DNA of 64,000 nucleotides, from contig JAZSKX010000014.1 in the NCBI GenBank assembly GCA_045535075.1, positions 174,373 to 238,372 of the forward strand, given 5' to 3'. Made by a program: the position numbers and the translations under genes. Below, piece by piece: positions 7,944 to 60,025 of the stretch (position 1 is the stretch's first letter; each line of letters opens with the position of its first letter). This stretch comes from Candidatus Spyradenecus sp. Lineage in GTDB: Bacteria; Verrucomicrobiota; Verrucomicrobiia; Opitutales; UBA953. The notes under the pieces were generated by a model that made no database searches, was not told the origin of the DNA, and was given only the letters and a program-made list of their open reading frames with translations.

Positions 7944-7963
7944 GTAAACAAACTTTCCTTACA

Positions 7964-41253: not shown

Positions 41254-41269
41254 AAGTGTAATGGCTCGA

Positions 41270-43474
41270 CTATCTCTTCTTAAAAGAAAGTTCGACGGAA
41301 GGATTTTTCGCGTCGGCGGCGCAAACGTATTCGATGCGAATCTTGTGCGTTCCCGCCGCGAGATTCACGCCGCGCATTCCCGTCGGGTTTTCCGTTCCGA
41401 CGTTCGCGTAGGATTTCGCTTCCGTGCCGGGTTTGTAAAGCTTGTCCGCGTCGATGAGCTGAATGTCGTAAAGATGGACGAAGGCTTTGCTTCCCTTGTT
41501 TTTGTCCGTTTTGAGGGAAAAAACATATTCGCCTTCTTCGGGAACGGAAATCGTGCCTTCAATCAAAATGCCGCGCGCGCCGCGCCCGTCGATAAATTTT
41601 TGCGGCAAGAGATTTTTGCCGAGCGGTTTTTCCTCCTTGCCGGAGAGCACGGGCTTTAAGTGCGTTTGGCGAAAATCCGGTACCCACGGGAACGCTTTGT
41701 CCGACGCAAAGGCTTTGTATTCAAATTTTAATTGCGTTGAATCGCCGGATTTTCCGACGGCGGGAACGGGATTTTTTTCAAAGAAAACTTTTTGCGAGAA
41801 ATCGAGTCCGCGCGTGTATTCGTGCGGATGTTTTCCGTCGAAAGCGCGGCGGGAACGCAACGCTTTGTCGCGCAGTTTTTGCTGGAAATCTTCGCCGAAG
41901 CCGGGCTTGCCCGCGAGATTTTTGCTTTCCTGAGGGTCTTTTAGTGTATCGTAAATTTCAAATACAACGGCGCCGTCGCCGGAAAATTTTGTATTTTCAT
42001 TTAAATTACGCGCCAAGCCTTTGTAGCCGTCAACCCAAACGACAAGCTGATTGCGGCGCGACAGCCCGTGGTGTGCGGGAACGAAATCGCCGCGCCGGCT
42101 TGAAGAGCCGCCGACGGAATATTCGCAGTAAATTTGCCCGGGCATTTGCTCGCCGCGCCCCGTCAGCGTCGGCAGAATCGACACGCCGTCCGAGCCTGAC
42201 GGAATTTCTATTCCGGCGGCATCGGCGAAGGTCGCGAGCCAGTCGTGGAATTGCGAGGGTTCGGTGGTCGTTTTTTTCTTCGGAATAAATTTCGGCCAGC
42301 GCACGATGGCGGGAACGCGCAAGCCGCCTTCGAACACGTCACGCTTGATGCCGTCCATCATGCCGTAAGACTTAAAAAACGCGGGATCCTGCGCCGGAGA
42401 GCCGGACGCGAAAAATGCGGTGCGCGCGCTGTCGTTGCCGGGTTCTTCATGCGGACCGTTGTCGGAAGTGAAAACGACCATCGTGTTGTCGTCGATTTTC
42501 AAATCTTTGAGCAGTTTGAAAAGGTCCGCCATCGCGTCGTCTACGCGGCGAATCATTGTCGAGTGGCGGCGGGCGGCATCGGTCGCGAAGTTTTTATTAT
42601 CGGGGTGAATGTAGGAATCGGGCGCGCCGAGTTTCGGGTCGGCAGTGTTGACGGTGCCGTTTTTCGTCCATTGGACGCCGCCTTTGATCCCGCCGCCTGA
42701 GGGATACGCGCAATTCGGCACGCGCAGAGAGCCGTGCGGAGCAGGGAGCGCGAGGTAAACGAAAAACGGCTGGCGCGGGTTGGTTTTTGTGCTTTTGACG
42801 ATCCAGTCTTTGGCGCGCGCGGTAAAAAGGTCTGTCGAATACGCGTTCCCGCTTTTGAGCTTGGGCGTTACATTTGTTTCGTTTTCCCAAACGTAGCGAC
42901 CGCAGTTCGCGGGGTAGTGATAATGCCCGGCGAGATGGTCGAAAATGCCGTAAAAATAATCGAATCCGCGTTCCCGTGCGCGGGCGAATCCGGTGTTTCC
43001 GGTTGAGCCGTTCCCGACGCCGCCGATACCCCATTTGCCGATGGCGGCGGTCGTGTAGCCGGCGGCTTGGAGTACGGATCCAAGTGTGTGGACATCGGCG
43101 ATGGGCGTGTCAAATGTGTTGTCGCGCACTTGTCGCGTGTGCCCTTGGTGCATTCCCGTCATGAGCGACGCGCGGGCGGGAGCGCTTACGGGGCAAGCCG
43201 TGTAATGGCGGGCGAGCAGAATGCCTTCGCTTGCCATTTTGTCGAGCGTCGGTGTTTTGAAGCGATTTGGGCGGGAACGGTTTTTGAATTTTTCGCCGTA
43301 GTTCCAATTGCAATTTAAGTCGCCCCAACCCATGTCGTCCACGAGTACGAAAATGATGTTCGGGCGTGCGCCGGAAGCGTTTTTCGGGGCGGCTCCCAAA
43401 GTTTGCGGGAACACGAACGGAGTGACGGCGGATGCCAGTAGGGCGGAGCGGAAAAATTTTTTTATACAAAGCAT
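41270..43474 (-). CDS. secreted Ser-type sulfatase with C-terminal PA14-like module
   Basis: Signal peptide, NIIFVLVDDMGWGDL, and an active-site block SAPARASLMTGMH, which is the Ser variant of (C/S)xPxR. The C-terminal ~140 aa are PA14-like (EGEYVFSLKTD...). Confidence 0.8.
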   Translation of the reverse strand: MLCIKKFFRSALLASAVTPFVFPQTLGAAPKNASGARPNIIFVLVDDMGWGDLNCNWNYGEKFKNRSRPNRFKTPTLDKMASEGILLARHYTACPVSAPARASLMTGMHQGHTRQVRDNTFDTPIADVHTLGSVLQAAGYTTAAIGKWGIGGVGNGSTGNTGFARARERGFDYFYGIFDHLAGHYHYPANCGRYVWENETNVTPKLKSGNAYSTDLFTARAKDWIVKSTKTNPRQPFFVYLALPAPHGSLRVPNCAYPSGGGIKGGVQWTKNGTVNTADPKLGAPDSYIHPDNKNFATDAARRHSTMIRRVDDAMADLFKLLKDLKIDDNTMVVFTSDNGPHEEPGNDSARTAFFASGSPAQDPAFFKSYGMMDGIKRDVFEGGLRVPAIVRWPKFIPKKKTTTEPSQFHDWLATFADAAGIEIPSGSDGVSILPTLTGRGEQMPGQIYCEYSVGGSSSRRGDFVPAHHGLSRRNQLVVWVDGYKGLARNLNENTKFSGDGAVVFEIYDTLKDPQESKNLAGKPGFGEDFQQKLRDKALRSRRAFDGKHPHEYTRGLDFSQKVFFEKNPVPAVGKSGDSTQLKFEYKAFASDKAFPWVPDFRQTHLKPVLSGKEEKPLGKNLLPQKFIDGRGARGILIEGTISVPEEGEYVFSLKTDKNKGSKAFVHLYDIQLIDADKLYKPGTEAKSYANVGTENPTGMRGVNLAAGTHKIRIEYVCAADAKNPSVELSFKKR

Positions 43475-43543
43475 AAATTATAATTAAAAGATAATTACAA
43501 CGAGGAGGATAATCCGCTTGAGCCGAAAACGATGCGCGACGGC

Positions 43544-44665
43544 TTAGTTTACTTTACGGCACAACCATGCGGCATAAAGAAAAAGAATGATGTTGGGGGC
43601 CCATGCGGCGGCGACGGGCGGGAGCCATTGTTTGGCGCCGAGCGCGTTGAAGATGTTGGTAAGCAAAAAGTAGGCGGCGAAAAGCCCGATGGATTTGGAG
43701 ACGCCGACCATCGGATTGGTTCGTACGCCGGCAACGGCGAAAGGAATTGCGATACCGACGACGATGAGGCAACAGAACGGACTCGCCAGAATCGAATTGT
43801 AATGCACGGAATATTCTGCGACGAGGGCTGCATTTTCTTCTCCGCCCATGGAGTTGAGCAACTCGCGAATTTCGGGAATGGAAAGGTCGTCCGGGTCTTT
43901 ATTGGTTAACGCCATCAGACGCGGATTTTCCGGAAATTCCTCGCGGGAAAGCGTCATGAGGTTCTTTCCTGAAGGCTGAAATTTATCGAATGTTTTTTGG
44001 CTTTTCGGCGGTTTTGCAGGTCCGTTCCCGAAGTCGACAAGGCGTCCGTCATACAGCGTCCACGTTCCCGTGGCTTCATCGTAATATCCGGTTTCTGCGA
44101 CAATTTCCTTTGTAATCTCACCTTTTTTGTTGAAGCAGTAGATGTTTACGTTTTGAGCTTCGCCGGTATAGGACTTAAAATTAGCAATCAGCCAAATATG
44201 CCGCTCTGCAGCGTTGTTGTAAAAGAGGCGTTCACCGCGTTCGCCGGCTTTATCGTATTGCTGAATAATCCGCGCCGTGCATTCCGTGGCGTAGGGTACG
44301 AACGTTGCGTTCAACAGGAGCATCAGGACGGAAAGAAGCGCTCCCGCGACCCAGAGTGAACGTGTGATGCGGAAGATGCCGAGCCCGGCGGCGCGCCACG
44401 CCGTCAGTTCCTGATTTTTGTGAAAATGCCCGAGAATGAAGAGCAGGGAGACGAGTAGGGAGACGGGAATAACGATCGGGAGAAAGCCGACGGCCGTCAT
44501 GCCGAAAAATTCCAGCATTTTCAAGGTCGGGATTTGCCACTCGATTAAGTCTTGGAGGTCGTTATAAACCGAGGAAATAAGCAACATTCCTACCATTGCG
44601 CAAAGCGCCATGAGGAAAATTTTAAACCATTCCTTAAAAACGTGTTTGTCGATAATCGGAAGCAT
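43544..44665 (-). CDS. LptF/LptG-family (YjgP/YjgQ) permease
   Basis: IIDKHVFKEWFKIFLMAL N-terminus and a 3 TM - periplasmic domain - 3 TM layout. Confidence 0.75.
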   Translation of the reverse strand: MLPIIDKHVFKEWFKIFLMALCAMVGMLLISSVYNDLQDLIEWQIPTLKMLEFFGMTAVGFLPIVIPVSLLVSLLFILGHFHKNQELTAWRAAGLGIFRITRSLWVAGALLSVLMLLLNATFVPYATECTARIIQQYDKAGERGERLFYNNAAERHIWLIANFKSYTGEAQNVNIYCFNKKGEITKEIVAETGYYDEATGTWTLYDGRLVDFGNGPAKPPKSQKTFDKFQPSGKNLMTLSREEFPENPRLMALTNKDPDDLSIPEIRELLNSMGGEENAALVAEYSVHYNSILASPFCCLIVVGIAIPFAVAGVRTNPMVGVSKSIGLFAAYFLLTNIFNALGAKQWLPPVAAAWAPNIILFLYAAWLCRKVN

Positions 44666-44710
44666 CAGATTCTTTGAGAAGTGTAAAGGGTTTGTTCGGG
44701 AAGGCGAGAA

Positions 44711-46486
44711 TTAATGCTGTTCGAGAATTTTTTTGGCGCGTTCCCGTCGTTCAATTCTTTCTTGTTCTGCCCGTTCTTTTTTTCGTTTTTCGATGATCGC
44801 CCGGCGCTCCGCCTCTTTTTCTGCTGCGAGGGCGGCTTTTTCTTCCGTGTAAGTCGGAAGTTTGCGCGGGTAGCCTTTACAAGGAGTCCAAATCTTGGAT
44901 TCGCCTTTAAATTTATTGCGGACTTTGTTTTTTGCCTTTTCCGAAACGTCGATTTTCCAGCGTTCGAAATAGGGAACAAGGTTTTTTTCCGTCGCTTCGG
45001 CAAGCGCTACTAAGAAGAAATCCCAACGTTCCTGATTGGTTGTCGAGTTGTTGAACGGCTGTTCTTCGTGGTGGCGCAAAGCGACTTTCCGGAAGGAGTC
45101 GTAGCCGAGCCCGCGCATGAGTTCGACGAAGAAATAAAGTTTCAGGCGTACGTCTTCTTCTTTGTCGAAAGTCGTTTTGTTGTTTTTAGTCAAAAAAGCC
45201 TGGACGCTTGCTTTCATATCTTCGGGCGCGATGGAGGTTCCGTCCCAAGCCTGCTCGTAGGAGGTGCCGATCGCTTGTGTTTGACTGATTGTTGAGAAAA
45301 GATTGACCGTTACTTCCGTGCAGCCGTCAAAGCGGAAAGGTGCCCATTGATGGTTGTGTCCCAATTCGTGCCAAAGTCCCCAACTGCCTTGCTTGACGAG
45401 CATACCGCTTTTGATGCAGTTCCCCCAATCCATGTAGCCCATCGCGGGATAGCCCGAATGCCCGTAGCCGACGGAAATTTGTTCGTCGATGACAAAGCGC
45501 ATCGGCGTCGCAATTTGGTCCGGATATTTGTCCCAACCGACAAGCCAATCCTGAACCGCCATACCGCGTTGCAGGTTTTTGCAGAGCCTGCGCGGAACTT
45601 TCAGCAGGCGCAGATGCTCCGCGGGAACGGTAAAAATCAGGCGCGGAACGGCAATTTCACCCCATGGAGCCTTACATTCCGCAAGCTGCTTTTGCCACTC
45701 TTCCTGCTTAACGACGGCGATGTCGATGCCTTTGTCGTCTTTGTGCCCGAGGACAAAAAGCGGCGAAGCGATTCCGCCGGAAATTTCAACTCGGACGGGT
45801 TTATGCTTCGGGTGAACACCTTTGACATCAAGATAGATTAAGCCTCCGAACGGATTTGCCAGTTCAGCCTTTTTTTCTCCCGCCTTAATGCGGACGGTAT
45901 TCGTCATCTTGGGCGGGCGTTTTTGCGTGTTGTCGTGATGTTGTTCGAGGTGGCTTTTGGTGATGAAATCCGTGTGGCATCCGATACGCAAGTCCATGTC
46001 AAACTTGGTTTTCCCTTTAACCGATACCGTAATTTTGGCTCCCGGCGGCGCGTAAAGTCCCAAGCTGTGCCAACCGCCGACGGCGGGATCAATTTCCACC
46101 GTGCGCTCAATCAGTTCGACTTCGCCTTTGGGAACTCCCGGGAAAAATTCCGCGATGCGCGCCGCTTTGGTCCGTTTCGGGTCGCCGTTGAGAATATCGT
46201 CGATTTTTGCAATCCAAGCGTTGATTTTGGCGTTGTCCTTGCATGGTTTTTTCGGATGCGGTAAATCGTCCAAGGCGGGGTCTTTTTCCGCTGTTTCCCA
46301 GCTCCATTTGCCGATGACTTTATCTTTTTGGCAGGGAATCTTGTCGCGATACGTCGGCGCAAACGCATTGGTATCCAAGGCTTCTTCCATCGTAATTTCG
46401 TCTTTGACGGGAGCGGCAAGTCCGGAAAGCGTGTTTCCGCACAGAACGAACACGAAAAGACAGGTAAAAAAGCGCAAGAAATTCAT
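44711..46486 (-). CDS. secreted M60-like (enhancin/mucinase-type) zinc peptidase
   Basis: Signal peptide MNFLRFFTCLFVFVLCG, the WHELGHNHQ zincin motif, and a K/E/R-rich helical tail. The start was set to the ATG at 46486. Confidence 0.7.
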   Translation of the reverse strand: MNFLRFFTCLFVFVLCGNTLSGLAAPVKDEITMEEALDTNAFAPTYRDKIPCQKDKVIGKWSWETAEKDPALDDLPHPKKPCKDNAKINAWIAKIDDILNGDPKRTKAARIAEFFPGVPKGEVELIERTVEIDPAVGGWHSLGLYAPPGAKITVSVKGKTKFDMDLRIGCHTDFITKSHLEQHHDNTQKRPPKMTNTVRIKAGEKKAELANPFGGLIYLDVKGVHPKHKPVRVEISGGIASPLFVLGHKDDKGIDIAVVKQEEWQKQLAECKAPWGEIAVPRLIFTVPAEHLRLLKVPRRLCKNLQRGMAVQDWLVGWDKYPDQIATPMRFVIDEQISVGYGHSGYPAMGYMDWGNCIKSGMLVKQGSWGLWHELGHNHQWAPFRFDGCTEVTVNLFSTISQTQAIGTSYEQAWDGTSIAPEDMKASVQAFLTKNNKTTFDKEEDVRLKLYFFVELMRGLGYDSFRKVALRHHEEQPFNNSTTNQERWDFFLVALAEATEKNLVPYFERWKIDVSEKAKNKVRNKFKGESKIWTPCKGYPRKLPTYTEEKAALAAEKEAERRAIIEKRKKERAEQERIERRERAKKILEQH

Positions 46487-46614
46487 ACTCTCAGAATAAT
46501 GAAACGCCCGTGCGCCGCTCAAACAAATTCCTACGCGTAAATTTCGGCGGGAACGGGGAGCTTTCCGGTGCTTCCTCGCTTGCGTCGTGCGGCGACGCTT
46601 TTTAGATTGTCGCC

Positions 46615-47613
46615 ATGTATTTTAAGGAAGAATCCGAACGTTTCTCTAAATTGCTTGAAAAGCTTGCCGGCAAGCGCGTCGCCGTTATCGGGCATGTGCG
46701 TCCGGACGGCGATTGTATCGGTGCGCAGGTCGCTCTCTGCCGTATTTTGCGTTCCCGCGGCATTGATGCCGTTTGCGTCAATCACCATCCTGTTCCTTAT
46801 AATTTAAAAAACTTTGTCGGCGATACACCGTTTTTTCATGAGCCGGATTTTGAAAATGACGGGCGAATCGCCGTTGCCGTGGACTGCGGAAATCTTTCCC
46901 GACTCGGAAAATCGCTTCTCGAAAAGGCGTTCCCGCAAGGCGTCTTTGCGGCAATCGATCACCACGAAACCAACGAATTTTTCGCGTCCGAAGAAAACAT
47001 CGTCGTCACGCGTGCCGCGGCAACGTGTCATTTGCTCGCCGCGTTTTGCTTGGATTGCGACATTTCGATCGATCCGGTGTTGGCAAACGCGCTTTATGTC
47101 GGAATCGCGACCGATACCGGGCAATTCCAATATTCTTCGACAACGGCGGAAGTGCTTGAAATTGCGGGAAAACTCATTCGCGCAGGTGCCTCTCCGGAAT
47201 TTGTTTCACGCGAACTTTACGAACAGGAAAAATTTCAAAAACTCGAACTGCTCCAACGTTATCTCGCGACCGCGCAACTCTATGCCGACGGCAAAGTCGC
47301 TGTTGCATGGATTCCCAAAAATGCTTTTGAAGAAACGGGAACGACGCGGGAAGATGCCGACAATTTTGTCAATTATCTGCGCGGGATCGCAGGCGTTCAA
47401 ATCGCGTGTCAACTCGAACAATCGCATACGGGTGTGAAAGGAAGCCTGCGTGCGCCTAACGACCGGATTCGTGTCGATTTGCTCGCAAAAAAGTTTAACG
47501 GCGGCGGGCATATTCGCGCTGCCGGATTCAATCTTGACGGCGCCGATCTCGATCGCGACCGCGAACGAATCATTGCCGTCATTCTCGACCACCTGAACGC
47601 GTCTGCGTTCTGA
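46615..47613 (+). CDS. nrnA: DHH/DHHA1 phosphoesterase (NrnA-like oligoribonuclease/pAp phosphatase)
   Basis: GHVRPDGDCIGA, AIDHHETN and GGGHIRAAGF motifs. Confidence 0.8.
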   Translation: MYFKEESERFSKLLEKLAGKRVAVIGHVRPDGDCIGAQVALCRILRSRGIDAVCVNHHPVPYNLKNFVGDTPFFHEPDFENDGRIAVAVDCGNLSRLGKSLLEKAFPQGVFAAIDHHETNEFFASEENIVVTRAAATCHLLAAFCLDCDISIDPVLANALYVGIATDTGQFQYSSTTAEVLEIAGKLIRAGASPEFVSRELYEQEKFQKLELLQRYLATAQLYADGKVAVAWIPKNAFEETGTTREDADNFVNYLRGIAGVQIACQLEQSHTGVKGSLRAPNDRIRVDLLAKKFNGGGHIRAAGFNLDGADLDRDRERIIAVILDHLNASAF

Positions 47614-47662
47614 CGCTTACAGATTTTAGTCTTGTGTAGGATATGTTGGAGTCGTTGCTGAT

Positions 47663-48853
47663 TTATTTCCCGGGAAAATTCTCGTCGGTAGAAAAAGCTA
47701 CTAAAGCAACTTTAATTTTTCGATGAATGCGCAATAGCGACTTAAGAAGAGCTGCTGACTGGGGCGAAAGTCCCTGTTTTACAAGGAATTCTGCTTGGTA
47801 TTCCAGGGTAACGAGTGCTTGTGTGAGATTCACTTGACATCTCCCATGGTCTCTAAATCCAGGGAAACCTCTATTGATAAAATTGGAGGCAGGACAAGTG
47901 TAGCAAGTGTGTTTAATCGGACACCCTTGGCAGTAGGGGTCGTTGTGATATTCTAGGCGCTCAGGTCTGTAATCAGCAAAAACACGTGCACGTTTCCCTG
48001 CACATACCGGGGAAAACATACTGCATGGATATAGCACCCCATCCACATCATAGCACACCTTTAGCATACCTGCGCCACAGCGCTGGGAGCAGGGAGCGTC
48101 TGAATCTTCTCCACCTTTGAAAAAAGGTTCAAGTAGTGTTGGTATTACTTGTGGAAATTCAATGTAGAATTGTTTGAGCTCTCGCAATTGGGCTTCTAGG
48201 GTAATCGCGTCTTCGTGCGACCACGACACACCATTTGCCAACTGGGCCCGCAAAGAGTACCCTTTTTCTGTTGCAGTACGTATATCTTTTGCCACTGTAG
48301 ATACAGTGGCAGGACTAACAGTCATACGAAAAGACATGTCCGGCCACTCACATCGGCAAAACTCTAGAGCAGATTCAGAAAAGCAACCACGATTTTGGTG
48401 TTGTGCAGAAGTAGAACCGTCATAACTGACAGTAAGAACCACCATATCTTTATTCTGGCGAAACCATTCCTTCATTTCATCATTCAATAGTGTACCATTC
48501 GTGATTACCATAAACATGGTGGGACACACCTGTGCGCGAGGGCGCGCCCACGGAACTAGCTTCTTTATTAACTCAAAATTCAACAACGGTTCTCCTCCAA
48601 ACAGCTCTACCAGCAGCCATGAAAAACGGGGATCCTGCCGCACGAGATTCATCTGCTCACTCACACAACGCTGAGCCGTAACAAAATTCATTGAGTGCTC
48701 CGTTTTAAAATGCTCGTAACAATAGGAACAATTCAGATTGCAACTTCGCGTCAAAATAAGCGTACACGTTTTGTTTTTACGCCTAGTAAGAGGAGGTAAT
48801 TGTTCGATAATCGGGGTTAATGCTAGTTCTTTCATTAGAGTGATATAGAACAT
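47663..48853 (-). CDS. radical SAM/SPASM-domain enzyme (paralog 2)
   Basis: CNLNCSYCYE (CX3CX2C), GGEPLL, and a C-terminal Cys cluster CGAGMLKVCYDVDGVLYPC...CQGCPIKHTCYTC (SPASM pattern). The start is ambiguous among GTG 48862, ATG 48853 and ATG 48835. Confidence 0.8.
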   Translation of the reverse strand: MFYITLMKELALTPIIEQLPPLTRRKNKTCTLILTRSCNLNCSYCYEHFKTEHSMNFVTAQRCVSEQMNLVRQDPRFSWLLVELFGGEPLLNFELIKKLVPWARPRAQVCPTMFMVITNGTLLNDEMKEWFRQNKDMVVLTVSYDGSTSAQHQNRGCFSESALEFCRCEWPDMSFRMTVSPATVSTVAKDIRTATEKGYSLRAQLANGVSWSHEDAITLEAQLRELKQFYIEFPQVIPTLLEPFFKGGEDSDAPCSQRCGAGMLKVCYDVDGVLYPCSMFSPVCAGKRARVFADYRPERLEYHNDPYCQGCPIKHTCYTCPASNFINRGFPGFRDHGRCQVNLTQALVTLEYQAEFLVKQGLSPQSAALLKSLLRIHRKIKVALVAFSTDENFPGK

Positions 48854-48906
48854 CCGGCACACGAAGAGATAATGTCTCGAGTGCCGGATGGAAGCGATTT
48901 TTCTAC

Positions 48907-49050
48907 TCAGTCAGCAAAAGTACATTTGTACCCATCGCAACAACCGATGCAACCGGACTTCATTTCTGTAAGGAAGCCGTCAGCCTCGCTAACGACACCA
49001 AATTCCGTCTCGAACGCATCAAGTACGGCTCTAATCTGTAGTTCTGTCAT
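48907..49050 (-). CDS. 47-aa Cys-rich small ORF, candidate rSAM-modified precursor peptide
   Basis: My manual translation is MTELQIRAVLDAFETEFGVVSEADGFLTEMKSGCIGCCDGYKCTFAD*. It is absent from the track, which only lists ORFs of at least 60 aa. An in-frame TAA lies 9 nt upstream of the ATG. It has the same strand as, and lies between, the two rSAM genes. No clear SD sequence. Confidence 0.55.
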   Translation of the reverse strand: MTELQIRAVLDAFETEFGVVSEADGFLTEMKSGCIGCCDGYKCTFAD

Positions 49051-49112
49051 GATTTTATATTATTTATTTTGTCGTTTTTTCTTTCTTGCCGACACCATAT
49101 CGGCAAAATTTG

Positions 49113-50345
49113 TTATATGGTCGCAAGCTTCCTTTCAATTTTCTTACAAATGCGTAATAAAAATTTGAGTATCGCTGCTGATTCTCGTGTTAGAGGTTCA
49201 CGAATTCTTATTTGTTGTTGAAGTTCTGCCGTAACGAGTGCTTGGGTCAAATACATATGACACATCCCATGATCCCGCAAAGAAGTATGTCCTCTAATCG
49301 CATAGTTCATTCCGTAACATGTAGGACACCAGTGACGTATGGGACATCCTACGCACGTGGGATCTTCACGTGCACTTTCTTGAGTCAAATCAACTTCAGA
49401 AAGGGGCATGTTCTTTTCCCCTACGGTCAACGGCGTAAACATTTGGCAAGCGTAGGTTCGACCATCGACATCGTAGCAAGTGCAACGTGTTCCGCTCCCG
49501 CAAGCTACTACACCGCTTATGTCGGCATCTTCCCCCCCCTTGAAAAACCGATCGAGTAATGTGAGTGGTAGATTCTGATCTGCTAAAAATGCATTTTTTA
49601 ACTTGCGACACTCTTCCAAAAAGAGAGAAGCACATTCTCTTGGCCAGTAAATACCTCCTGCAAGTTCTGCCCGAATACGAAACCCTTGTCGTAATGCGGT
49701 CAAAATCGTTTCAGATAAATTTACAATGGAATCCGGTGGGATTGTCATTCGGAAAGCCTGAGACGGCCAAGTTTTTCGGCAGAAATCAACAGCACTTTCA
49801 TTCCGCATTCCCCGATTACGAAGTTGCGACTCTTTTGAGCCATCATAGCTAACACCATAGAAAACGATGTCCCGATTAGCCAATAACCATACTTTAATCT
49901 CATCTGTCAGCAGAGTTCCGTTCGAGGAGATAGTGAAATGCACATTTACGTCTTTCACATTATCTCGGACCCACTGGACTAAGAGACGTATCACATCGAA
50001 ATTGAGTAGTGGCTCCCCTCCAAACAAATCAACTGATAACCACGTGTATTTGGAACTCTCTCGAACAAAATCAAGTTGCTCGTTTAGACAGCGTAGAGCT
50101 GTCCGGAATGTCATTTTTCGAGATGTTTTGAACTTTTCATAACAATAAATACAACGTAGATTGCAGTTGTGCGTTAAGATTAGCATGCACATTTTAGCAG
50201 TCCGCGCATTGCGTCCTGTTTCAATAGCTACAATACTGGCAACTTCGTGTGGAACGGTCTTTGTGTTTACACAATCGCTTTCTGCTAACATGGGGGCATC
50301 CGTTCTATCTGCACAATTCAAGGCAAGTGTTGTGCGTTGTGCCAT
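49113..50345 (-). CDS. radical SAM/SPASM-domain enzyme (paralog 1)
   Basis: CNLRCIYCYE, GGEPLL, and CGSGTRCTCYDVDGRTYAC...CVGCPIRHWCPTC. It aligns by eye with paralog 2 along its whole length. An internal start at 50291 (MLAESD) is possible. Confidence 0.8.
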   Translation of the reverse strand: MAQRTTLALNCADRTDAPMLAESDCVNTKTVPHEVASIVAIETGRNARTAKMCMLILTHNCNLRCIYCYEKFKTSRKMTFRTALRCLNEQLDFVRESSKYTWLSVDLFGGEPLLNFDVIRLLVQWVRDNVKDVNVHFTISSNGTLLTDEIKVWLLANRDIVFYGVSYDGSKESQLRNRGMRNESAVDFCRKTWPSQAFRMTIPPDSIVNLSETILTALRQGFRIRAELAGGIYWPRECASLFLEECRKLKNAFLADQNLPLTLLDRFFKGGEDADISGVVACGSGTRCTCYDVDGRTYACQMFTPLTVGEKNMPLSEVDLTQESAREDPTCVGCPIRHWCPTCYGMNYAIRGHTSLRDHGMCHMYLTQALVTAELQQQIRIREPLTRESAAILKFLLRICKKIERKLATI

Positions 50346-50347
50346 TT

Positions 50348-52783
50348 CTACCTTTGACGGCGTCTGCGGGAAGCGACGAGTGCTAAAATGCCCCCGCCCG
50401 CCAGCAATCCGAACATCGACGGTTCTGGAATTGCCGACGCTGTGACTGCGTAGCTCGAAAAATCGGCCGTAATGAAGCTGAGCGTTCCCGCAATTTCGTC
50501 ATAGGAAATGTTTCTGACAATATTTGTGTAATCTTCCCATTCGGCATCATCGCTATCTGCTTTGTGGAATATTTTAATCGTTGATGCATCGCGATACTGA
50601 CCGACATTGAGGACAACGAGTACGTCCGACTTCCCTGCGCCTTCACCGTTTTCAACGTCGAAAGACCACGCAGCTAAAGTTTCGTCGTCGAGGTTTCCCG
50701 TATTGATAACCACCGATGATGCATCCAGTTCTTTTGCCGCGTTGATGATAACACTTTCCGCTGCCGCAGAAAGCGTTACTGCCGACGATTTCGCTGAAAT
50801 TTCCAAAGATGTTCCCGCGGAAAGCTCTTGCGGCGCGTCAATATCTCCGACAACAATGTTCGTTGCTCCCGCCGTGAAAACGCCGTCTGCATAAGTTCCG
50901 CCGAAAGCGATAACAGCCCCGGAAGCGTGGATCGCATTTCCCGCACGATTGACAAAAACATTCACGGAATCGCCGGATTCTAAATTTCCTCTCAAGAAGA
51001 CAAGCACACCATCGTTCACAAGCGTTTCTGTAATTTGGGCGCACTTTTTATGATTAACGGTGAATGTAACCTCTGCTCCGTCGGAAATTGTCATCTTGGA
51101 AAATTGATTTGATGAGTTTTCAAAAAATACTTGAGTATTTGGACCTGATATATCGAGGATTGAGCCTGTGTTTATTGCGCCCTCCCTGAAAAATACCGTT
51201 GCGTTGTCCGAAATATAAGTGGTTGCAACAATTCCTCCTCCAAAATCGTATATCCCTTTGCCGCATATTTCTACTATTTTAGCCTGGATATCATTTGAAA
51301 CGCCGCCGGCAGAATTGTTTCTAAAAAACATTTCTCCTGCTAAGAGCCTGATTCTCTGGTCTGCACATATTGCTCCCCCTTTCTCTAATGCGATATTATT
51401 CAAAAAGCGATTTTTCCCCGAAATAGTCGCGATATCGTTGTTTATACTTATTGCTCCTCCGTTTTTACCAGATTTGTTTTGTTCAAATACATTATTGCCG
51501 TCAATTTGGTTGTATTTATTACTAGAAGTTACATGGATCGCCCCTCCATTCCAAGTGGCTGAATTTCCTTTGAATATATTTTTCCCTGAAATGCTGAGAG
51601 AGCCATCGCCAGTCCAAATTCCGGCGGCGATAGCACCTCCACTTTGGGAGGAGAAATTATTTTCGAATGTATTTTCTCCGGAAAGAGAAATATTACCCCA
51701 CGCGAATATAGCACCGCCACCATTATCACCTCTGCAGGAATTGTTTCGAAACGTATTTTTCCCTGATAGAGAAATTTTGAGTCTCGAATGAATTGCACCT
51801 CCGTCTCCGTCTGCGCAGTTGCCAATAAAAATGTTTGTACTGTTGGTATCAGAGGTGATAGATCCTCCATATCCCTCAATAGCACCTCCGCTTGCGGCAG
51901 AGCAATTTTCTTCAAACCAATTCTCCCCTGAAATAGACACCGTTCCACTAATTGCACCTCCGCCTCCGGCTCCGTATCCCTTTGAAGAATTCTTTTTGAA
52001 CACATTTTTTCCTGACAATATTGTTTTTTTCCCACTAATCGCTCCTCCACCTGATTCTGCCGAATTCCCTTCAAATTTATTCTCTCCCAAAATAGTGATA
52101 TTGCCGCCTGAAATAATGGCTCCCCCCTGATACGACGATATATTCTCGGAAAAGTTATTCTTTCCGCTGATTGTCAAATCGTTTTGTACGAATAATGCTC
52201 CTCCAGAATCCTGAGAGGTGTTTTTCGAAAACAAGTTGTTACCATCAATGCTCATTTGTCCGGACGAATAAATGCCCCCCCCTGATCGCTCCGCTGAATT
52301 TTCAGTGAATGTGTTCGACCCAAACAATACGATGTCGTTTCCGTAGATGGCACCTCCTGAATAAGCTGAGTTTTTAGAGAAAATGGTAGATTCTCCGGAA
52401 AAGTTCAATCTCTCCGATCGAATAGCTCCTCCTCCCGACGAAGTCGCTCCGGAGCTAAAAATTACATCCGAAGTTTGAAGATTTAAAATCCCGTCAAACA
52501 ATCTTCCGTTGTCCAATGTGATTTTTCTTTGACTCCCTTGGATATTTGATTGAATTGATAAACTTGAGATGACCTGTTCTGTATTTTCGGTTACATCAGA
52601 CGAAATAGTAACAGTTTTGCCGTTTAGGGTATCCCCGGACTTGATAAGCAGATTGTAAACTTCAGAAATTGTATTACCTACTACCGTGTTTCCGTCATTA
52701 GTTGAAGTGTAAATAGAGGCGACGCTAGAGCTTTGAGCTGCAACCAAAAATAGGAGGGAAATGGAAATAAAAGGAAATTTCAT
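50348..52783 (-). CDS. PEP-CTERM-anchored surface protein with Pmp-type (FxxN/GGAI) repeats
   Basis: Signal peptide, and about 14 units of ~25 aa such as FSKNSAYSGGAIY, FTENSAERSGGGIY and FEGNSAESGGGAI. The C-terminus is IPEPSMFGLLAGGGILALVASRRRRQR. Confidence 0.8.
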   Translation of the reverse strand: MKFPFISISLLFLVAAQSSSVASIYTSTNDGNTVVGNTISEVYNLLIKSGDTLNGKTVTISSDVTENTEQVISSLSIQSNIQGSQRKITLDNGRLFDGILNLQTSDVIFSSGATSSGGGAIRSERLNFSGESTIFSKNSAYSGGAIYGNDIVLFGSNTFTENSAERSGGGIYSSGQMSIDGNNLFSKNTSQDSGGALFVQNDLTISGKNNFSENISSYQGGAIISGGNITILGENKFEGNSAESGGGAISGKKTILSGKNVFKKNSSKGYGAGGGGAISGTVSISGENWFEENCSAASGGAIEGYGGSITSDTNSTNIFIGNCADGDGGAIHSRLKISLSGKNTFRNNSCRGDNGGGAIFAWGNISLSGENTFENNFSSQSGGAIAAGIWTGDGSLSISGKNIFKGNSATWNGGAIHVTSSNKYNQIDGNNVFEQNKSGKNGGAISINNDIATISGKNRFLNNIALEKGGAICADQRIRLLAGEMFFRNNSAGGVSNDIQAKIVEICGKGIYDFGGGIVATTYISDNATVFFREGAINTGSILDISGPNTQVFFENSSNQFSKMTISDGAEVTFTVNHKKCAQITETLVNDGVLVFLRGNLESGDSVNVFVNRAGNAIHASGAVIAFGGTYADGVFTAGATNIVVGDIDAPQELSAGTSLEISAKSSAVTLSAAAESVIINAAKELDASSVVINTGNLDDETLAAWSFDVENGEGAGKSDVLVVLNVGQYRDASTIKIFHKADSDDAEWEDYTNIVRNISYDEIAGTLSFITADFSSYAVTASAIPEPSMFGLLAGGGILALVASRRRRQR

Positions 52784-52819
52784 GATAATCAGTTTTAGAG
52801 GTGATAGAAAAACGGAGTT

Positions 52820-53560
52820 TTACTTCCGGCGACGGCGGGAAGCGACGAAGGCAAGCGTGCCAAGCCCGGCAAGGAGACCGAACATCGACGGTTCCGGGAT
52901 CGAATGCATCGAAACGCTGTGGATGAGCCCGTTTGTGCGGTATTGCGTGTTGAGGTCTCCACCAAGCGCAAACTTGCTAATGGTTCCCGAGAAATTCCCG
53001 ACAAGCGTTCCCGAAGCCGTTTCAACTCCGTTTACTGTAATTGAAACCGCGTTGCCTATTTTCGTGAGGGAGAACGCATAATATTGGTTGGGAGTAACGG
53101 CAATAATACCGGAAGAATTCGTTTGTATGTCTCCGTAGAGGGAAACACGATTCGCATTTTCGGAGTCGGGGCCAAAGCTCAATTTGATGTCGGAGACTTC
53201 TCCGGTTGTTGCGTTGGTTGCGGTCCCGCCGATTTCAGCGAAGAGTGTTTTGGCGTACGAACTTGCATAAATCTTTTCCCCGAGGGTGATATTAACGGTA
53301 AACACAAAATCGTCAGACCAATCGCCGAAATTACCCGTGAAACTCGGACGTTTATTACTTGCGGCAATTGCTCCTCCGATTTGCGCTCCCGTATATTGAT
53401 TGATGGATGCCTTTTCAATTTCAAGGTTTCCTTGGGCGGAGTAGAAATTCTCATATTCGATTCCGAAGTTAATGCTCCAAGCCCAATCGCCGGTAGCGTA
53501 AAGAGGTATGCCGGAAAAGCTTGTCGCAAGAAGTGTAGTAAGAATGATTTGTTTTTTCAT
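52820..53560 (-). CDS. PEP-CTERM-anchored secreted protein (lectin/LamG-like beta-sandwich suspected)
   Basis: Signal peptide MKKQIILTTLLATSFSG. The C-terminus is IPEPSMFGLLAGLGTLAFVASRRRRK. Confidence 0.7.
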   Translation of the reverse strand: MKKQIILTTLLATSFSGIPLYATGDWAWSINFGIEYENFYSAQGNLEIEKASINQYTGAQIGGAIAASNKRPSFTGNFGDWSDDFVFTVNITLGEKIYASSYAKTLFAEIGGTATNATTGEVSDIKLSFGPDSENANRVSLYGDIQTNSSGIIAVTPNQYYAFSLTKIGNAVSITVNGVETASGTLVGNFSGTISKFALGGDLNTQYRTNGLIHSVSMHSIPEPSMFGLLAGLGTLAFVASRRRRK

Positions 53561-53643
53561 AGATGATAGATCTTTTAGTGTTAAAAATATTTCCGTAGAA
53601 CAATCGGTTTACCCGATGTTATAAGAATTTTTCCTAAAAAGTA

Positions 53644-53896
53644 GCGCTTTGGAAAAACGTCGGGCTTTCCTCTCAAGAACCGCGGAATACACGGAAAGCA
53701 CGGAAATCGTTAAGCGCAAAAATTACAAAATTCCTCTCAAAGAACTGCGTAAGAAAAAACTCAAACACAACTCAAAATAAACATTCTTTATCTGTGTTTA
53801 TCTGCGCAATCTGCGTGTTTTTCTTGCTTCCGTGAAATTCCGTGTTTTCCGTGATAAAAAAAGTAATTTTTTGTTGCCGACGCTTTTCCAAACCGC
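53644..53896. repeat. 253-bp inverted-repeat element with internal iteron-like repeats
   Basis: The outer inverted repeat is GCGCTTTGGAAAAACGTCGG (53644-63) against CCGACGCTTTTCCAAACCGC (53877-96). There are 3x C(A/G)CGGAA at 53681, 53690 and 53699, mirrored by 3x TTCCGTG at 53828, 53838 and 53847. There are also 3x ATCTG(T/C)G at 53790, 53800 and 53809. Confidence 0.5.
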
Positions 53897-54060
53897 AGTT
53901 TTTACTTAAAGGTCGTTGCAGTGCAACTGAAAACCGAGCTCAAGAACTCCGAGGAGCTCTTCCTTTCTCGGGTTGTTTTATTCCCTTCATATGATGTCGT
54001 AAGACGGATGTGTTTCTCTGTTTTATTTAACTTTTTCTGGATCGGTGTCTGGTGTAGAGT

Positions 54061-56661
54061 GTGAGCATGAATTTGTTCGTGCTTGTGTTCGTATTGGGGA
54101 TTTACCTCTTCCCGAGCGTTTTGGTTTACCTCATACTCGCGGGGAAAATCAGGAGTTTGGAGGGAACTGTCCGCCTCCTTCTCGAAAATCGTAAGTTGCG
54201 GGAAAAATCACCGGACACTGTTTGCCCGAAGCCAAGTGTAACGCCGCCCGAATCTCCCGAAAACAACGCGCCCCAAACGCCTCGCGGGAACGTTGCTCCG
54301 AAGCCTTCCGCCGTTCCTCCCGGACAGGATTTTCGCGGGAACGAAGTTTCGCCGCCGCCCGTGCCGATTCCCGCGATGAGCGATCCTGCGATTCCGCTTG
54401 TAGAGAAATTGCGGGAATGGAAAATCCTGCCGCCGGAAAACATGTCGCTTGAAATTGCCGTTATGCAGTGGTGGGCTCCGCGCATCGGCGGAGTATTGGC
54501 ATTGCTTGCGCTGATATTTTTCGGTGTTTGGGCGTCGCAGTTTTCGTCTCCGCTGATCAAGGTCTTGGAAATGGCTGCGGTCGCCGTCGGCATTGCCGGC
54601 TTCGGCTTGTATCTGAACCGACATGAGAAAAACTCATTGGGAGATTCGTTGACCGCCACGGGAACGACGATGTTTTATCTGGTTGCGCTCGCGGCGGGGA
54701 CGTTCCCGTCGACAAAAATTTTTGACAGCATTCCGGTCGCGTTACTTGTTCAAATCCTTGCGATTGTGCCGACGATTTTGCTCGGGCGGGGGAAATTTAT
54801 TCCGATGCTCCTGTCGCTTGTTTTTGCGTTCGTGAGCGCACTTTTTGCCGTACTCAACGGCGCGGGAACGGCAGCGCTGGCGACTTCTTTGCTGGCTTAC
54901 ATTGTTGCCGCGTGGTTTTGCGCAAAGAAAAATACACTGGGACTTTTGTTGGCGGGAGCGATCGGTGCTTTTTTGCCGCTTTGGACGATCGTTCACCCGG
55001 AAATCAGTCCGGAAGTTTATGAGTCGCTTATAACAGAAAGTAATGAAACTCATTCGGTTGTCGCAATGCTCCTCGGAGCTACGAGTCTGGGCGTTTATCT
55101 GACTTTTTTTGTGATAGGAATTGTTATTCCCAATTGCGTCCTTCTTAAAACACGAAACACGAGCGTATTCGGAAAATTTATTTATGCGGTCGGCTCGATT
55201 CATGCGTTAGTCGCAACGGCGCTTGTCATGGAAAGATTCCGATTCCTTTTGACCTCGGTTCGGCTTTGCCCGGATTCGCCCGATATCATTTTCGCTTTGT
55301 TTTTTACGGCGGCAACGCTCGTGTTCCTGAGTGCGGCGCGGCTTGCATTTTGTCGTTTTCGAGAGAATAAATTTCTTTTCGAATTCAATTTTGTCGCGGG
55401 AACGCTGGCACTTTCCGCCGCAATTATCGCATGGATTCCGTCTTCCGGGAAAAACGTTCTGTTTTACGCGATGCTCGCTCAGGCGCTTCTCCTCGCTTAT
55501 GCGGGGCGTTCGCTTAATACCAAATGGACTCTGATTTCGCTTATCGCCTGTCTTGGCCTTTCAATCGGAGCGAGCACGGATTGCACACTACTTGAAGCCT
55601 GCTTGCGTGCGGCGGTAACACTAATCGCCGTTGCCTGGTTTTTCGGAAATAAAAAGCAATGGCAGAGCGAATTCCCTCGGATAATTGCGCTTGTCGTTTG
55701 CGCGGGAGCGGGAATTTTATCCGCTTTGACTCTTTATGACGCATCGCTCGCCTTGACGAATTTGACGGTAGTCTGCATCGTTTTCCCTTTGTCTTGCTTG
55801 GCGGTTTTGACGGCGGGAACGCTTTTGCCGCATTTTACGAAAAAACCGTTTTTGTGGAGTGCCGCAACCTGGGGCGCGCTCATTCTTTGCTGTGCCGCCG
55901 GAGACGTTTTTATCGAAAAACTCACGTTTAGTTATTGGCTTGTTGCCGGCGTAATCGTCGTCGTGCTCGCCGTTCCCGCGCTGCGGTATTTTATCAAAAA
56001 CGAAAAAATCGGTTCTGCCGCAGAACTTAGTCTTAGCGTTCCGATTTTGATTTGCCTCACGGGAATTCTATTTTTACGGAATCATTTTCATCTTGCCGGA
56101 TTTGCGTTTCTCCTGCCTTTGGTTGCGTTGTTCGCGGGAACGCCGTGGCGAAAAAATTCCGCGATTCTTCCGCTTGCGCGTCGCGGTGCGGAGGCATCGG
56201 CGTTGCCCTTGCTTGCAGTTATCTTTTTCCTTGTCGACAGCGCGATTCTAAAAGAACAGCTACGTTCTCCGATTGTTCCCGTCGCGTTGGCGCTTTACGT
56301 CTTTCTGCCGTTTTGTTTTTCTGCGATGCGCCAGCTTCTGCGGGAACGCCCGTGGTTTGCGGTTGCGGCGAGTGTCTCGGGAACACTTTGCCTGTTGTAT
56401 TGGGGAGATGTCTCGTTCCCGCGTTTTTTAACGGCGGAAGGAGTAATCATCGCAATCGCTTTGATATTTGCCGGTTTGCTTGCTCGCGTTTCTTCCGTAC
56501 GTATTGTCGGGATAATATTGCTTGCGGGAATGCTTTTACGCCTGTTCCTCTGCGATATCAGCGATACGATTTGGCGCATCGTTGCCTTTGCTTCGGTCGC
56601 TGCGGCGCTCTTCCTAATTGGCTTCCTTTATCAGCGGCTTTCAAAAATTATCGAAAAATAA
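54061..56661 (+). CDS. large polytopic membrane protein (DUF2339-like)
   Basis: One N-terminal TM helix, a short coiled segment, a Pro-rich linker, then more than 20 TM helices. This is the layout I associate with DUF2339. Confidence 0.6.
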   Translation: MSMNLFVLVFVLGIYLFPSVLVYLILAGKIRSLEGTVRLLLENRKLREKSPDTVCPKPSVTPPESPENNAPQTPRGNVAPKPSAVPPGQDFRGNEVSPPPVPIPAMSDPAIPLVEKLREWKILPPENMSLEIAVMQWWAPRIGGVLALLALIFFGVWASQFSSPLIKVLEMAAVAVGIAGFGLYLNRHEKNSLGDSLTATGTTMFYLVALAAGTFPSTKIFDSIPVALLVQILAIVPTILLGRGKFIPMLLSLVFAFVSALFAVLNGAGTAALATSLLAYIVAAWFCAKKNTLGLLLAGAIGAFLPLWTIVHPEISPEVYESLITESNETHSVVAMLLGATSLGVYLTFFVIGIVIPNCVLLKTRNTSVFGKFIYAVGSIHALVATALVMERFRFLLTSVRLCPDSPDIIFALFFTAATLVFLSAARLAFCRFRENKFLFEFNFVAGTLALSAAIIAWIPSSGKNVLFYAMLAQALLLAYAGRSLNTKWTLISLIACLGLSIGASTDCTLLEACLRAAVTLIAVAWFFGNKKQWQSEFPRIIALVVCAGAGILSALTLYDASLALTNLTVVCIVFPLSCLAVLTAGTLLPHFTKKPFLWSAATWGALILCCAAGDVFIEKLTFSYWLVAGVIVVVLAVPALRYFIKNEKIGSAAELSLSVPILICLTGILFLRNHFHLAGFAFLLPLVALFAGTPWRKNSAILPLARRGAEASALPLLAVIFFLVDSAILKEQLRSPIVPVALALYVFLPFCFSAMRQLLRERPWFAVAASVSGTLCLLYWGDVSFPRFLTAEGVIIAIALIFAGLLARVSSVRIVGIILLAGMLLRLFLCDISDTIWRIVAFASVAAALFLIGFLYQRLSKIIEK

Positions 56662-56735
56662 CGCGTTCGTCTTTTTTACGAAAAAACGCGCTCTCTTGCG
56701 GGAGCGCGTTTGTGTTTCGTGAAACGGAATTCGGC

Positions 56736-57686
56736 TTAGTAGCCCTTAATTTTGAAAAGTCCGGTAACCGAGTTGTTGTTGTGAATGCGCGTAATTGCCT
56801 CACCGATAAGTTTCGCGACCGAGAGAATCGTAATCGGCAAACCGCGCGATTCCACGGGAACGGAATTTGTCGTGATAATTTCGTCCAGCGCTCCCGTTGC
56901 GAGGCGTTGGTAAGCAATTTCGTTGAGCATGCAGTGGCTGACAAGCGCACGAACGGATTTTGCACCGTTTTCGCGGAGCAGTTTCGCCGCAGAGCAGAGC
57001 GTTCCCGCAGTTTCCGTCATGTCGTCAACGAGGATAATATTGCGCCCTTCGACTTCGCCGACGAGGTTCGTCGATTGAACCGTTGTCGCGGAAACGCGGC
57101 GCTTGGCGACGAATCCGATCGGAAGGTCGAGCAGATTGGCGACGGCGCTTGCCGCTTTCATACCGCCGATGTCCGGAGAGAACACCGTGGCGTCTTTAAG
57201 GTACGGCTTGTCCTTGATGTAATCATAGAACACCGGCGAAGCAAAAAGATGGTCAACCGGAATGTCAAAAAATCCTTGAATCTGCTGGGCGTGCAGGTCG
57301 AGCGCGAGTACGCGGTTGGCGCCTGCGGCGGTGAGCAGGTTGGCGACGAGTTTTCCGGTGATCGGCACGCGCGGACGGTCTTTTCGGTCTTGGCGAGCGT
57401 AGCCGAAGAACGGAATAACGGCGGTGATACGCTTTGCCGATGCGCGTTTCATCGCGTCAATCATGATGAGCAATTCCATCAGGTGATTGTTGGCGGGGCA
57501 ACAGGTCGGTTGAATCGCAAAGACGTCGCAACCGCGGATGTTTTCCTTAATTTGGACAAACGTTTCGCCGTCCGGGAACGGAGTTACATCAGCTTCGCCG
57601 AGCGGCACACCGATCGTTTCGCAGATTTCCCGCGCGAGAGCCGGGTTCGCATTACCGGTAAAGATTTTCATGGGAGAGTCGGACAT
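56736..57686 (-). CDS. prs: ribose-phosphate pyrophosphokinase
   Basis: GNANPALAREI, DLHAQQIQGFFDIPVDHL and the ILVDDMTETAGTL PRPP loop. Confidence 0.9.
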   Translation of the reverse strand: MSDSPMKIFTGNANPALAREICETIGVPLGEADVTPFPDGETFVQIKENIRGCDVFAIQPTCCPANNHLMELLIMIDAMKRASAKRITAVIPFFGYARQDRKDRPRVPITGKLVANLLTAAGANRVLALDLHAQQIQGFFDIPVDHLFASPVFYDYIKDKPYLKDATVFSPDIGGMKAASAVANLLDLPIGFVAKRRVSATTVQSTNLVGEVEGRNIILVDDMTETAGTLCSAAKLLRENGAKSVRALVSHCMLNEIAYQRLATGALDEIITTNSVPVESRGLPITILSVAKLIGEAITRIHNNNSVTGLFKIKGY

Positions 57687-57781
57687 GGTGTTAAAAGGAA
57701 AGTCTGAATGAGTTAGGAAGTAAAAGCCATTTGCAAATTAAAGAACTGCGGGGAAGTTCCCGCAGCTCTTTATCGAAACGA

Positions 57782-58213: not shown

Positions 58214-58295
58214 AAATCAGATAAAAAACGGTTTCGGATATCAGAATTTCTTTTGTCGGAATTGGCAAATGAAAAAACGATTCGCGTTCCCGCGC

Positions 58296-59984: not shown

Positions 59985-60025
59985 CGTCGTATCAGCTTAA
60001 TTTTTGTGAAACATGGTTGTCGCTT

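Follow-up and report, generated by a model that had tools for sequence, protein, structure and literature searches.

A strain-variable island with a Pmp-repeat PEP-CTERM gene and a radical SAM/SPASM peptide cassette in a gut Candidatus Spyradenecus genome

In this locus of Candidatus Spyradenecus sp., genes for two PEP-CTERM surface proteins are followed, on the same strand, by genes for two radical S-adenosylmethionine (rSAM) enzymes and a small peptide, which raises the question of whether these genes work together or merely lie together. The window, namely the whole 64,000-nucleotide stretch of contig JAZSKX010000014.1 analysed here, had been described in an earlier note as holding a five-gene island, rich in A+T and poor in the 8-mer that marks the genome, in which surface proteins and peptide chemistry might be linked. 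We consider, at a probability of roughly 0.78, that segment 47604-52817 is recently acquired, strain-variable cargo, carrying a surface-protein gene and a self-contained cassette for a ribosomally synthesised and post-translationally modified peptide (RiPP), and that the two are adjacent on account of the site at which the cassette landed. The list of open reading frames (ORFs) does contain the five co-oriented minus-strand genes at the positions reported, and both Pfam and NCBIfam bear out their domain assignments. The gaps of 36 nt (LamG/Pmp811) and 2 nt (Pmp811/rSAM-1) had also been read correctly. The island, its left junction and the five genes are as follows.

47604-52817, no strand assigned: strain-variable island (cargo) with Pmp811, rSAM-A, the precursor peptide and rSAM-B, delimited by synteny breaks, composition and the 8-mer.
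47594-47613, plus strand: left junction, in the last codons of nrnA; homology with sister strain L094 ends at 47603.
52820-53560, minus strand: LamG-like PEP-CTERM protein, 246 aa; Pfam Laminin_G_3 and PEP-CTERM above cut-off.
50348-52783, minus strand: Pmp811, a Pmp-repeat PEP-CTERM protein of 811 aa, assigned by Pfam and NCBIfam.
49113-50345, minus strand: rSAM-1, here also rSAM-A, a radical SAM/SPASM enzyme; Pfam Radical_SAM and Fer4_12.
48907-49050, minus strand: 47-aa precursor peptide, MTELQIRAVLDAFETEFGVVSEADGFLTEMKSGCIGCCDGYKCTFAD; no match in Pfam or NCBIfam.
47663-48862 as an ORF, likely 47663-48835 according to ortholog starts, minus strand: rSAM-2, here also rSAM-B, a radical SAM/SPASM enzyme.

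Relatives suitable for comparison were reached by way of the LamG protein's 90% cluster, whose 10 variants lie on many contigs, far more than those of the Pmp811 and rSAM clusters. On either side of the island, sister strain L094 runs collinear with the window, with nucleotide identities of 98.3% over 52818-61341 and 96.3% over 41825-47603, and shares nothing with it in between: the slot from the LamG gene to nrnA measures 5214 bp in the window and 4219 bp in L094, where it is filled by one gene for a 1305-aa pentapeptide-repeat PEP-CTERM protein, without rSAM genes. In contigs L088-L093, 93-95% identical, the break again falls on base 52818; they carry a 686-aa version of the pentapeptide-repeat protein together with two small genes, again without rSAM genes. 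Synteny with close relatives, a check suggested by the earlier note, reveals therefore a segment that is variably present between conserved flanks. Nonetheless, this foreign-looking, variable segment comprises four genes (47604-52817) and not the five originally included, because homology is lost on one side at 52818, 2 nt past the stop codon of LamG, and on the other at 47603, 10 nt within the 3' end of nrnA. The LamG gene is core, and in L088-L094, all without rSAM genes here, it occupies the same position adjoining DUF2339. NrnA itself ends in LNASAF in the window and in LNASEQVSK in L094.

The island is also much less diverged between carriers than the DNA around it. The window and carrier strain L081 differ at 11 of 5214 bp within the island (99.79% identity), both the Pmp811 passenger and the precursor peptide being 100% identical, while their flanks are 96.3% and 98.9% identical (429 differences over 15989 bp). 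Divergence is thus 5- to 17-fold lower in the island, which is therefore younger than the strain split or has passed between strains. Horizontal acquisition, as put forward by the earlier note, is supported by the composition, the scarcity of the 8-mer, the replacement in L094 and the low carrier divergence, all of which concur. When synteny was followed through NrnA in the eight nearest GTDB species representatives, which are animal-gut Opitutales metagenome-assembled genomes (MAGs) with about 80% NrnA amino acid identity, neighbourhoods were found rearranged and no island genes appeared within 10 kb. An exact-sequence look-up of the rSAM-1 and NrnA ORFs of the window returned no match, start calls or strain being different.

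A 14-nt microhomology (12 of 14 positions; CGCAGACGC, coding strand) was observed between 47594-47607, at the left junction, and 50355-50368, at the junction of the Pmp811 3' end with rSAM-1. It brackets the rSAM cassette. Illegitimate recombination may have left it, or the match may be fortuitous.

The compositional contrast, previously judged by eye, is borne out by measurement, with a G+C fraction (GC) of 0.42-0.48 over 47.5-54 kb against ~0.52 elsewhere. Taking the 64-kb window as the host reference for all composition statistics, GC at third codon positions (GC3) amounts to 0.407 for rSAM-2, 0.375 for rSAM-1 and 0.404 for Pmp811, values that lie at z = -3.6 to -4.3 relative to the 42 other ORFs of the window (mean 0.574, standard deviation (SD) 0.047). 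Checks of GC, GC3 and k-mer deviation place 47604-52817 far outside the spread of the remaining window: its dinucleotide delta* is 0.211 versus 0.031±0.009 (z about 21), and its tetranucleotide correlation 0.708 versus 0.975±0.006. The LamG gene as a whole is no compositional outlier (GC3 0.518, z = -1.2), with its first 90 codons AT-rich (GC3 0.42) and its last 60 GC-rich (GC3 0.70).

Regarding the 8-mer, the 64-kb window contains 168 copies of CGGGAACG or its complement (2.6/kb), 101 on the plus and 67 on the minus strand; this is about 80 times the number expected at zero order, and the extended consensus is yG-CGGGAACG-c. It is the top 8-mer, at 2.4-4.2/kb, in 8/8 related species-level gut Opitutales MAGs (L001-L008). 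More distant relatives lack it, as do the other cassette-bearing loci, including the Akkermansia-like ones. Since copies are found lineage-wide, whatever the codon phase or orientation, and between genes too, CGGGAACG is a DNA-level lineage signature, and its lack is therefore a legitimate marker of foreign origin. The depletion initially noticed is real: against a density of 2.9/kb outside the segment, 47641-54060 holds 2 copies where 18.5 are expected (Poisson P = 1.7e-6), and every other 6.4-kb window has at least 12. The 5.2-kb island retains a single copy, at 50483, within the C-terminal module of Pmp811. Regarding the four copies listed in the earlier note, those at 50483 and 53006 are exact, while those at 50810 (TGTTCCCG) and 52982 (GGTTCCCG) have one mismatch each; the exact copies are placed upstream of the IPEPS codons, by 52 and 106 nt, and hence outside the regions that encode the PEP-CTERM tails themselves.

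Over-represented octamers have already been used for detecting horizontal gene transfer at the gene level (PMC3497702). A literature search on this 8-mer, and on uptake sequences in Verrucomicrobia, found nothing relevant. Genomic islands of Neisseria lacking the DNA uptake sequence (DUS) are a known case, and the present locus resembles such DUS-poor or octamer-anomalous islands in that an abundant lineage oligomer is nearly missing from an atypical, variably present segment. It differs from them in that the island is not marked by any mobility gene, tRNA gene or repeat, and in being an allelic replacement between fixed flanks instead of an insertion into an empty site. As an observation apart, CGGGAACG resembles, by analogy, a DNA-uptake-sequence or HIP1-type signature.

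The surface protein of the island, Pmp811, is built of two parts.

51047-52783, minus strand: signal peptide and Pmp-repeat passenger, residues 1-579; Chlam_PMP E = 3e-28, POMP_repeat E = 1e-32.
50348-51046, minus strand: C-terminal anchor module, residues 580-811, with the PEP-CTERM tail at 50348-50431; defined by homology and GC3.

Full-length searches with Pmp811, swamped by generic Pmp-repeat similarity, gave homologues of at most 42% identity beyond its own species. Residues 580-811 share 42-43% amino acid identity with the C-terminal modules of the L094 1305-aa and L088 686-aa proteins, and the remaining matches in a module-only search belong solely to PEP-CTERM proteins of Opitutales / Ca. 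Spyradosoma. Along the gene, GC3 goes from 0.32-0.40 in the passenger (0.32-0.48 over 51047-52783) to 0.45-0.57 in the C-terminal module. The proposal of foreign passenger DNA fused to a host-like tail holds in so far as the C-terminal 232 aa are lineage-like, GC3 rises there and an 8-mer copy is present; at the DNA level, nonetheless, the module is old and diverged, which does not fit a recent graft.

Both Pmp811 and the LamG protein display the features of PEP-CTERM/exosortase substrates, namely a signal peptide, the PEP motif, a hydrophobic span and an Arg cluster. The PEP motif, hydrophobic helix and basic cluster at their C-termini read IPEPSMFGLLAG...VASRRRR in both, and at the DNA level the two tails (52827-52900 for LamG) are direct repeats of 74 nt with 74% identity. 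With PF07589, LamG reaches 23.7 bits and Pmp811 18.6 (cut-off 20.7); with TIGR02595, the values are 18.0 and 16.9 (cut-off 16). Pmp811 differs from other PEP-CTERM substrates in that its anchor module is specific to the Opitutales lineage. Its many Pmp repeats relate it to Chlamydia-type Pmp proteins, although it bears a PEP-CTERM anchor where these have an autotransporter barrel; L088 additionally encodes a Pmp protein of 1893 aa in which an autotransporter domain is present. As for the alternative cargos, the proteins encoded at L088 10861-12921 (686 aa) and L094 8639-12556 (1305 aa) have signal peptide and C-terminal half in common but contain unequal numbers of pentapeptide repeats, the slot protein being thus length-variable between strains.

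The cassette has a distribution of its own. Near-identical rSAM copies are confined to the same species, and the next matches among 5.8 billion proteins, at 63-67% identity, come from Akkermansia-like and other MAGs. In 5/5 Verrucomicrobia loci (L083-L087) the order rSAM-A / peptide(s) / rSAM-B is kept, with rSAM-A orthologs (58-68% identity) in the same first position and precursor homologues of 46-49 aa between both rSAM genes, and no Pmp or LamG homologue, nor a PEP-CTERM tail in any reading frame, was found in these loci. Homologues at about 40% identity in Clostridiales are arranged as rSAM / 65-aa Cys-rich peptide / rSAM, the peptide having a related leader motif, and their loci contain no PEP-CTERM genes. 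The functional link between adhesin and rSAM genes that had been suggested is unsupported, because each part is found without the other elsewhere: the cassette occurs without PEP-CTERM/Pmp genes in every other locus examined, and alternative PEP-CTERM alleles occur without rSAM genes. To judge by these comparisons, the adjacency of adhesin and cassette is best read as the landing site of the latter, with no biochemical partnership.

Across loci, cassette GC (0.40-0.50) does not follow host GC (0.46-0.57). In the Akkermansia-like MAGs, L083 (5809-6951) and L085 (6947-7957) have in common a tyrosine integrase, 56% identical, as well as arrays of ankyrin-repeat proteins, and in L087 a YcaO gene (6649-8556) overlaps the start of rSAM-A. 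No sulfatase gene adjoins the cassette in the other loci. Scanning IMG/VR with the rSAM alignment retrieved generic rSAM/SPASM relatives only (35% identity in a single case, 21-29% in the others), so that there is no sign of a phage-borne cassette. Separately, the rSAM-B ortholog in L085/L086 is apparently frameshifted near residue 353, two extra precursor copies following it.

The leader of the precursor family is conserved as M-S/T-E-x-Q-I-x-A-x-L-x-A-F-E-x-x-F-G-x-V-x-E-A-x-G and its core as S-G-C-x-G-(C/V)-C-D-x-(Y/G)-K-C, in which the Cys-Asp pair is invariant. L083 has two precursor copies. The family is rare, with five further representative peptides or clusters among 1.84 billion proteins, and a literature search on ranthipeptides in Akkermansia or Verrucomicrobia found nothing relevant; the cassette represents an uncommon and apparently undescribed rSAM/SPASM RiPP family.

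The two enzymes are paralogous (45% identical). For rSAM-A, an alternative start at 50291, used by gene callers on contigs of the same species, gives a 392-aa protein, and for rSAM-B the ORF reaches GTG 48862, ATG 48835 being the likely start as orthologs begin MKELALTP or MKDFELTP. The CX3CX2C motif reads CNLRCIYC in rSAM-1 and CNLNCSYC in rSAM-2; its cysteines C32, C36 and C39 are invariant in 36 homologues, and so are seven SPASM cysteines (C253, C271, C302, C305, C311, C314 and C333), the Pfam SPASM model itself giving no match. In NCBIfam the best match of both proteins is PapB (NF047865), near full length, at 100-113 bits against a cut-off of 340, rSAM-A scoring 100, and the SCIFF maturase TIGR03974 scores 69-82 bits against 425. 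Among solved proteins CteB is the closest relative in sequence as well as in fold, aligning only from its residue 97; for the AlphaFold2 (AF2) model of rSAM-B (predicted local distance difference test, pLDDT, 91), template-modelling (TM) scores are 0.65 with CteB, 0.62-0.64 with ChlB and 0.60 with the anaerobic sulfatase-maturating enzyme (anSME). The system resembles PapB/PapA (freyrasin) and CteB/SCIFF in combining CX3CX2C and a seven-Cys SPASM domain with an adjoining short Cys-rich precursor. It departs from them in sub-cut-off scores, which leave it outside both equivalog families, in two paralogous maturases around the precursor where those systems have a single enzyme, in the absence of any counterpart to CteB residues 1-95 (which form its RiPP recognition element, RRE), and in a precursor that matches no SCIFF or other NCBIfam precursor model.

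Two-enzyme systems are known from thuricin CD (TrnC/TrnD), a two-maturase sactipeptide locus, and from HxsB/HxsC, a paired-rSAM system, both of which, as here, encode two rSAM/SPASM paralogues with one or two short precursors. No specific sequence relationship to them was found, however (HxsB E about 1e-20, far below cut-off), and the present locus has a single precursor and neither transporter nor immunity genes. As to the chemistry, PapB forms links between Cys and either Asp or Glu, separated by 0-6 residues (PMC9413430). Considering these links together with the invariant Cys-Asp pair of the core, a Cys-to-carbon thioether cross-link would be the most likely product of both rSAM enzymes.

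Two RNA hairpins flank the precursor gene.

49084-49108, minus strand: conserved RNA hairpin in the rSAM-A/precursor gap; -13.2 kcal/mol, z = -4.6.
48851-48890, minus strand: terminator-like hairpin directly 3' of the precursor gene; -25 kcal/mol, z = -6.1.

The upstream hairpin, with the conserved sequence UUUUUGCCGA-UACGGUU-UCGGCAAAAA, has a 10-bp stem and equivalents in L083, L084, L085 and L087; in their alignment 98% of cells are paired, and 4/10 pairs exhibit compensatory changes. The downstream hairpin has a counterpart in the same position in all orthologous cassettes, with a GC-rich stem followed by a U-rich tract, and buries the candidate rSAM-2 starts GTG 48862 and ATG 48853. Rfam gave no match over 47000-54500, both hairpins included, and no structure was predicted at the LamG/Pmp811 or Pmp811/rSAM-1 junctions. 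A scan for sigma-70 promoters and intrinsic terminators returned no more matches than shuffled sequence and missed the real hairpins. RiPP operons usually set a high precursor:enzyme transcript ratio by means of a hairpin placed behind the structural gene. Ahead of rSAM-A, non-coding DNA extends over 215-644 nt in other loci and over 2-56 nt here. Since rSAM-A has here no upstream non-coding DNA and the junctions no hairpin, the cassette is probably transcribed by read-through from the surface-protein genes; co-transcription with Pmp811 is plausible, as a result of the position of insertion.

Altogether, the island most likely sits in a replacement hot-spot between the conserved LamG-type PEP-CTERM gene and nrnA, in an uncultured Opitutales of the animal gut close to Ca. 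Spyradosoma. The slot always starts with a PEP-CTERM surface-protein gene whose passenger varies by strain, Pmp repeats here and pentapeptide repeats (686 or 1305 aa) in other strains, and whose ~230-aa C-terminal anchor is lineage-specific, with cargo presumably exchanged by homologous recombination through the flanks. In the present allele a RiPP cassette stands directly behind the surface-protein gene, in the order rSAM-A, conserved hairpin, 47-aa precursor, terminator-like hairpin and rSAM-B. The leader helix of the precursor (AFExxFGxVxEAxG) would recruit both RRE-less rSAM/SPASM paralogues, and these would cross-link the invariant cysteines of the core SGCxGCCDxYKC within the peptide, likely as thioethers as with CteB and PapB, while the hairpin 3' of the precursor gene would set a high precursor:enzyme transcript ratio.

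Several aspects weigh against this reading. The island has no tRNA gene, integrase or clear target-site duplication, and no donor above 63-67% amino acid identity was detected among the 5.8 billion proteins. A Pmp811 allele without the cassette was not found either, so that one-step and two-step acquisition are indistinguishable. Every alternative cargo of the slot is also AT-richer than the core (0.45-0.46 versus 0.52), and part of the AT bias may hence be a property of the slot or of repeat-rich surface genes. Regarding the cassette, both rSAM proteins fall far below every NCBIfam equivalog cut-off and have no N-terminal RRE, the rSAM core starting from about residue 30 and the AF2 model presenting no extra N-terminal domain; given the low scores and the missing RRE, the cross-link chemistry is a guess by analogy. 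The island contains no protease, exporter or immunity gene, and the cassette loci compared number only five or six.

Another explanation would make the slot a surface-antigen swapping locus that has captured a mobile RiPP cassette; with the cassette now transcribed solely by read-through from the PEP-CTERM genes, its cross-linked peptide and the Pmp adhesin would work as one co-regulated colonisation/competition module. Whole cargos would be exchanged by homologous recombination through the 8-mer-dense flanks, with transformation as a possible route if CGGGAACG were a DNA-uptake-type signal; we regard such a module as unlikely. It is improbable that all five genes constitute one functional operon, with rSAM chemistry serving the PEP-CTERM adhesins either by modifying them or through a peptide acting alongside. 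The co-orientation of the genes, the gaps of 36 nt and 2-56 nt, the lack of a hairpin between Pmp811 and rSAM-1 and of upstream non-coding DNA proper to the cassette, together with the low GC3 and equal lack of strain divergence shared by Pmp811 and cassette, would all fit. Nonetheless, the LamG gene is also conserved in relatives without the other four, alternative PEP-CTERM alleles go without rSAM genes, the 5/5 other Verrucomicrobia loci and the Clostridiales loci have the cassette without a PEP-CTERM/Pmp gene, the cassette brings its own dedicated, conserved substrate peptide, and the -25 kcal/mol terminator-like hairpin stands between peptide gene and rSAM-2. Decidedly improbable, too, is a native region, that is, a fast-evolving surface locus whose AT and 8-mer bias would stem from repeat-rich composition and relaxed codon usage. 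All three alternative cargos are indeed AT-richer than the core (0.44-0.46 versus 0.52), the 5' half of the LamG gene is AT-rich, and the Pmp811 C-terminal module is lineage-specific. However, the rSAMs are no repeat proteins and yet have the lowest GC3 (0.375-0.407), with zero 8-mers in 2.7 kb; their nearest relatives are found in Akkermansia-like MAGs beside integrases, cassette GC does not follow host GC, composition-normalised signatures lie about 21 SD off the remaining window, and divergence is far lower in the island than in the flanks.

The two remaining alternatives concern the identity of the enzymes and the integrity of the contig. The rSAM proteins might be anSMEs for the sulfatase encoded at 41270-43474, 4 kb from their genes, the small ORF being then spurious; anSME, likewise without an RRE domain, was called the second-best structural match (TM 0.60). 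This role is very improbable and is rejected on several grounds: TIGR03942 scores 41 bits against a cut-off of 349, below the peptide maturases; L094, without rSAM genes at the locus, keeps the sulfatase, which belongs to the conserved flank; and every cassette has the small ORF, conserved in its sequence and position as well as in the RNA structures that flank it. The lack of a sulfatase neighbour in other cassette loci points in the same direction. A chimeric contig, with junctions produced by assembly or binning, might be suspected because the source is a MAG and composition shifts abruptly, but its probability is close to negligible: the same junctions in independent assemblies (two ENA samples, one NCBI MAG and one Logan contig) exclude it, both being present in L081 (300-kb scaffold), L082, the NCBI contig (275 kb) and the Logan contig, and the alternative allele of L094 uses exactly the same flanks.

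Two further features of the window were observed outside the island. In the sulfatase region (41162-43661), 29-65 differences per 500 bp separate the window from L081 and L094, the typical value being ~7, which suggests a recombined or diversifying allele. A second low-GC patch, in the region of 61394-61748 and 62868-62910 (GC 0.43-0.45), includes ORF 61796-62245 on the minus strand (149 aa, GC3 0.41), which has no 8-mer copy and is adjoined by several copies of a ~52-bp repeat, to which the initial 52 bases of L094 correspond as well.

At this locus of an uncultured gut Verrucomicrobium, allelic replacement of cargo is cleanly resolved to the base, and the hyper-abundant 8-mer of its Opitutales lineage is usable as a marker of foreign DNA. 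The attractive idea of rSAM chemistry tied to PEP-CTERM adhesins is removed as unsupported, the island itself being an ordinary genomic island that carries an undescribed rSAM/SPASM RiPP family. With two RRE-less paralogous maturases, a 46-49-aa precursor and hairpins around the precursor gene, this family is apparently new; its host range takes in gut Verrucomicrobia, including Akkermansia-like genomes, and it is tractable for heterologous expression.

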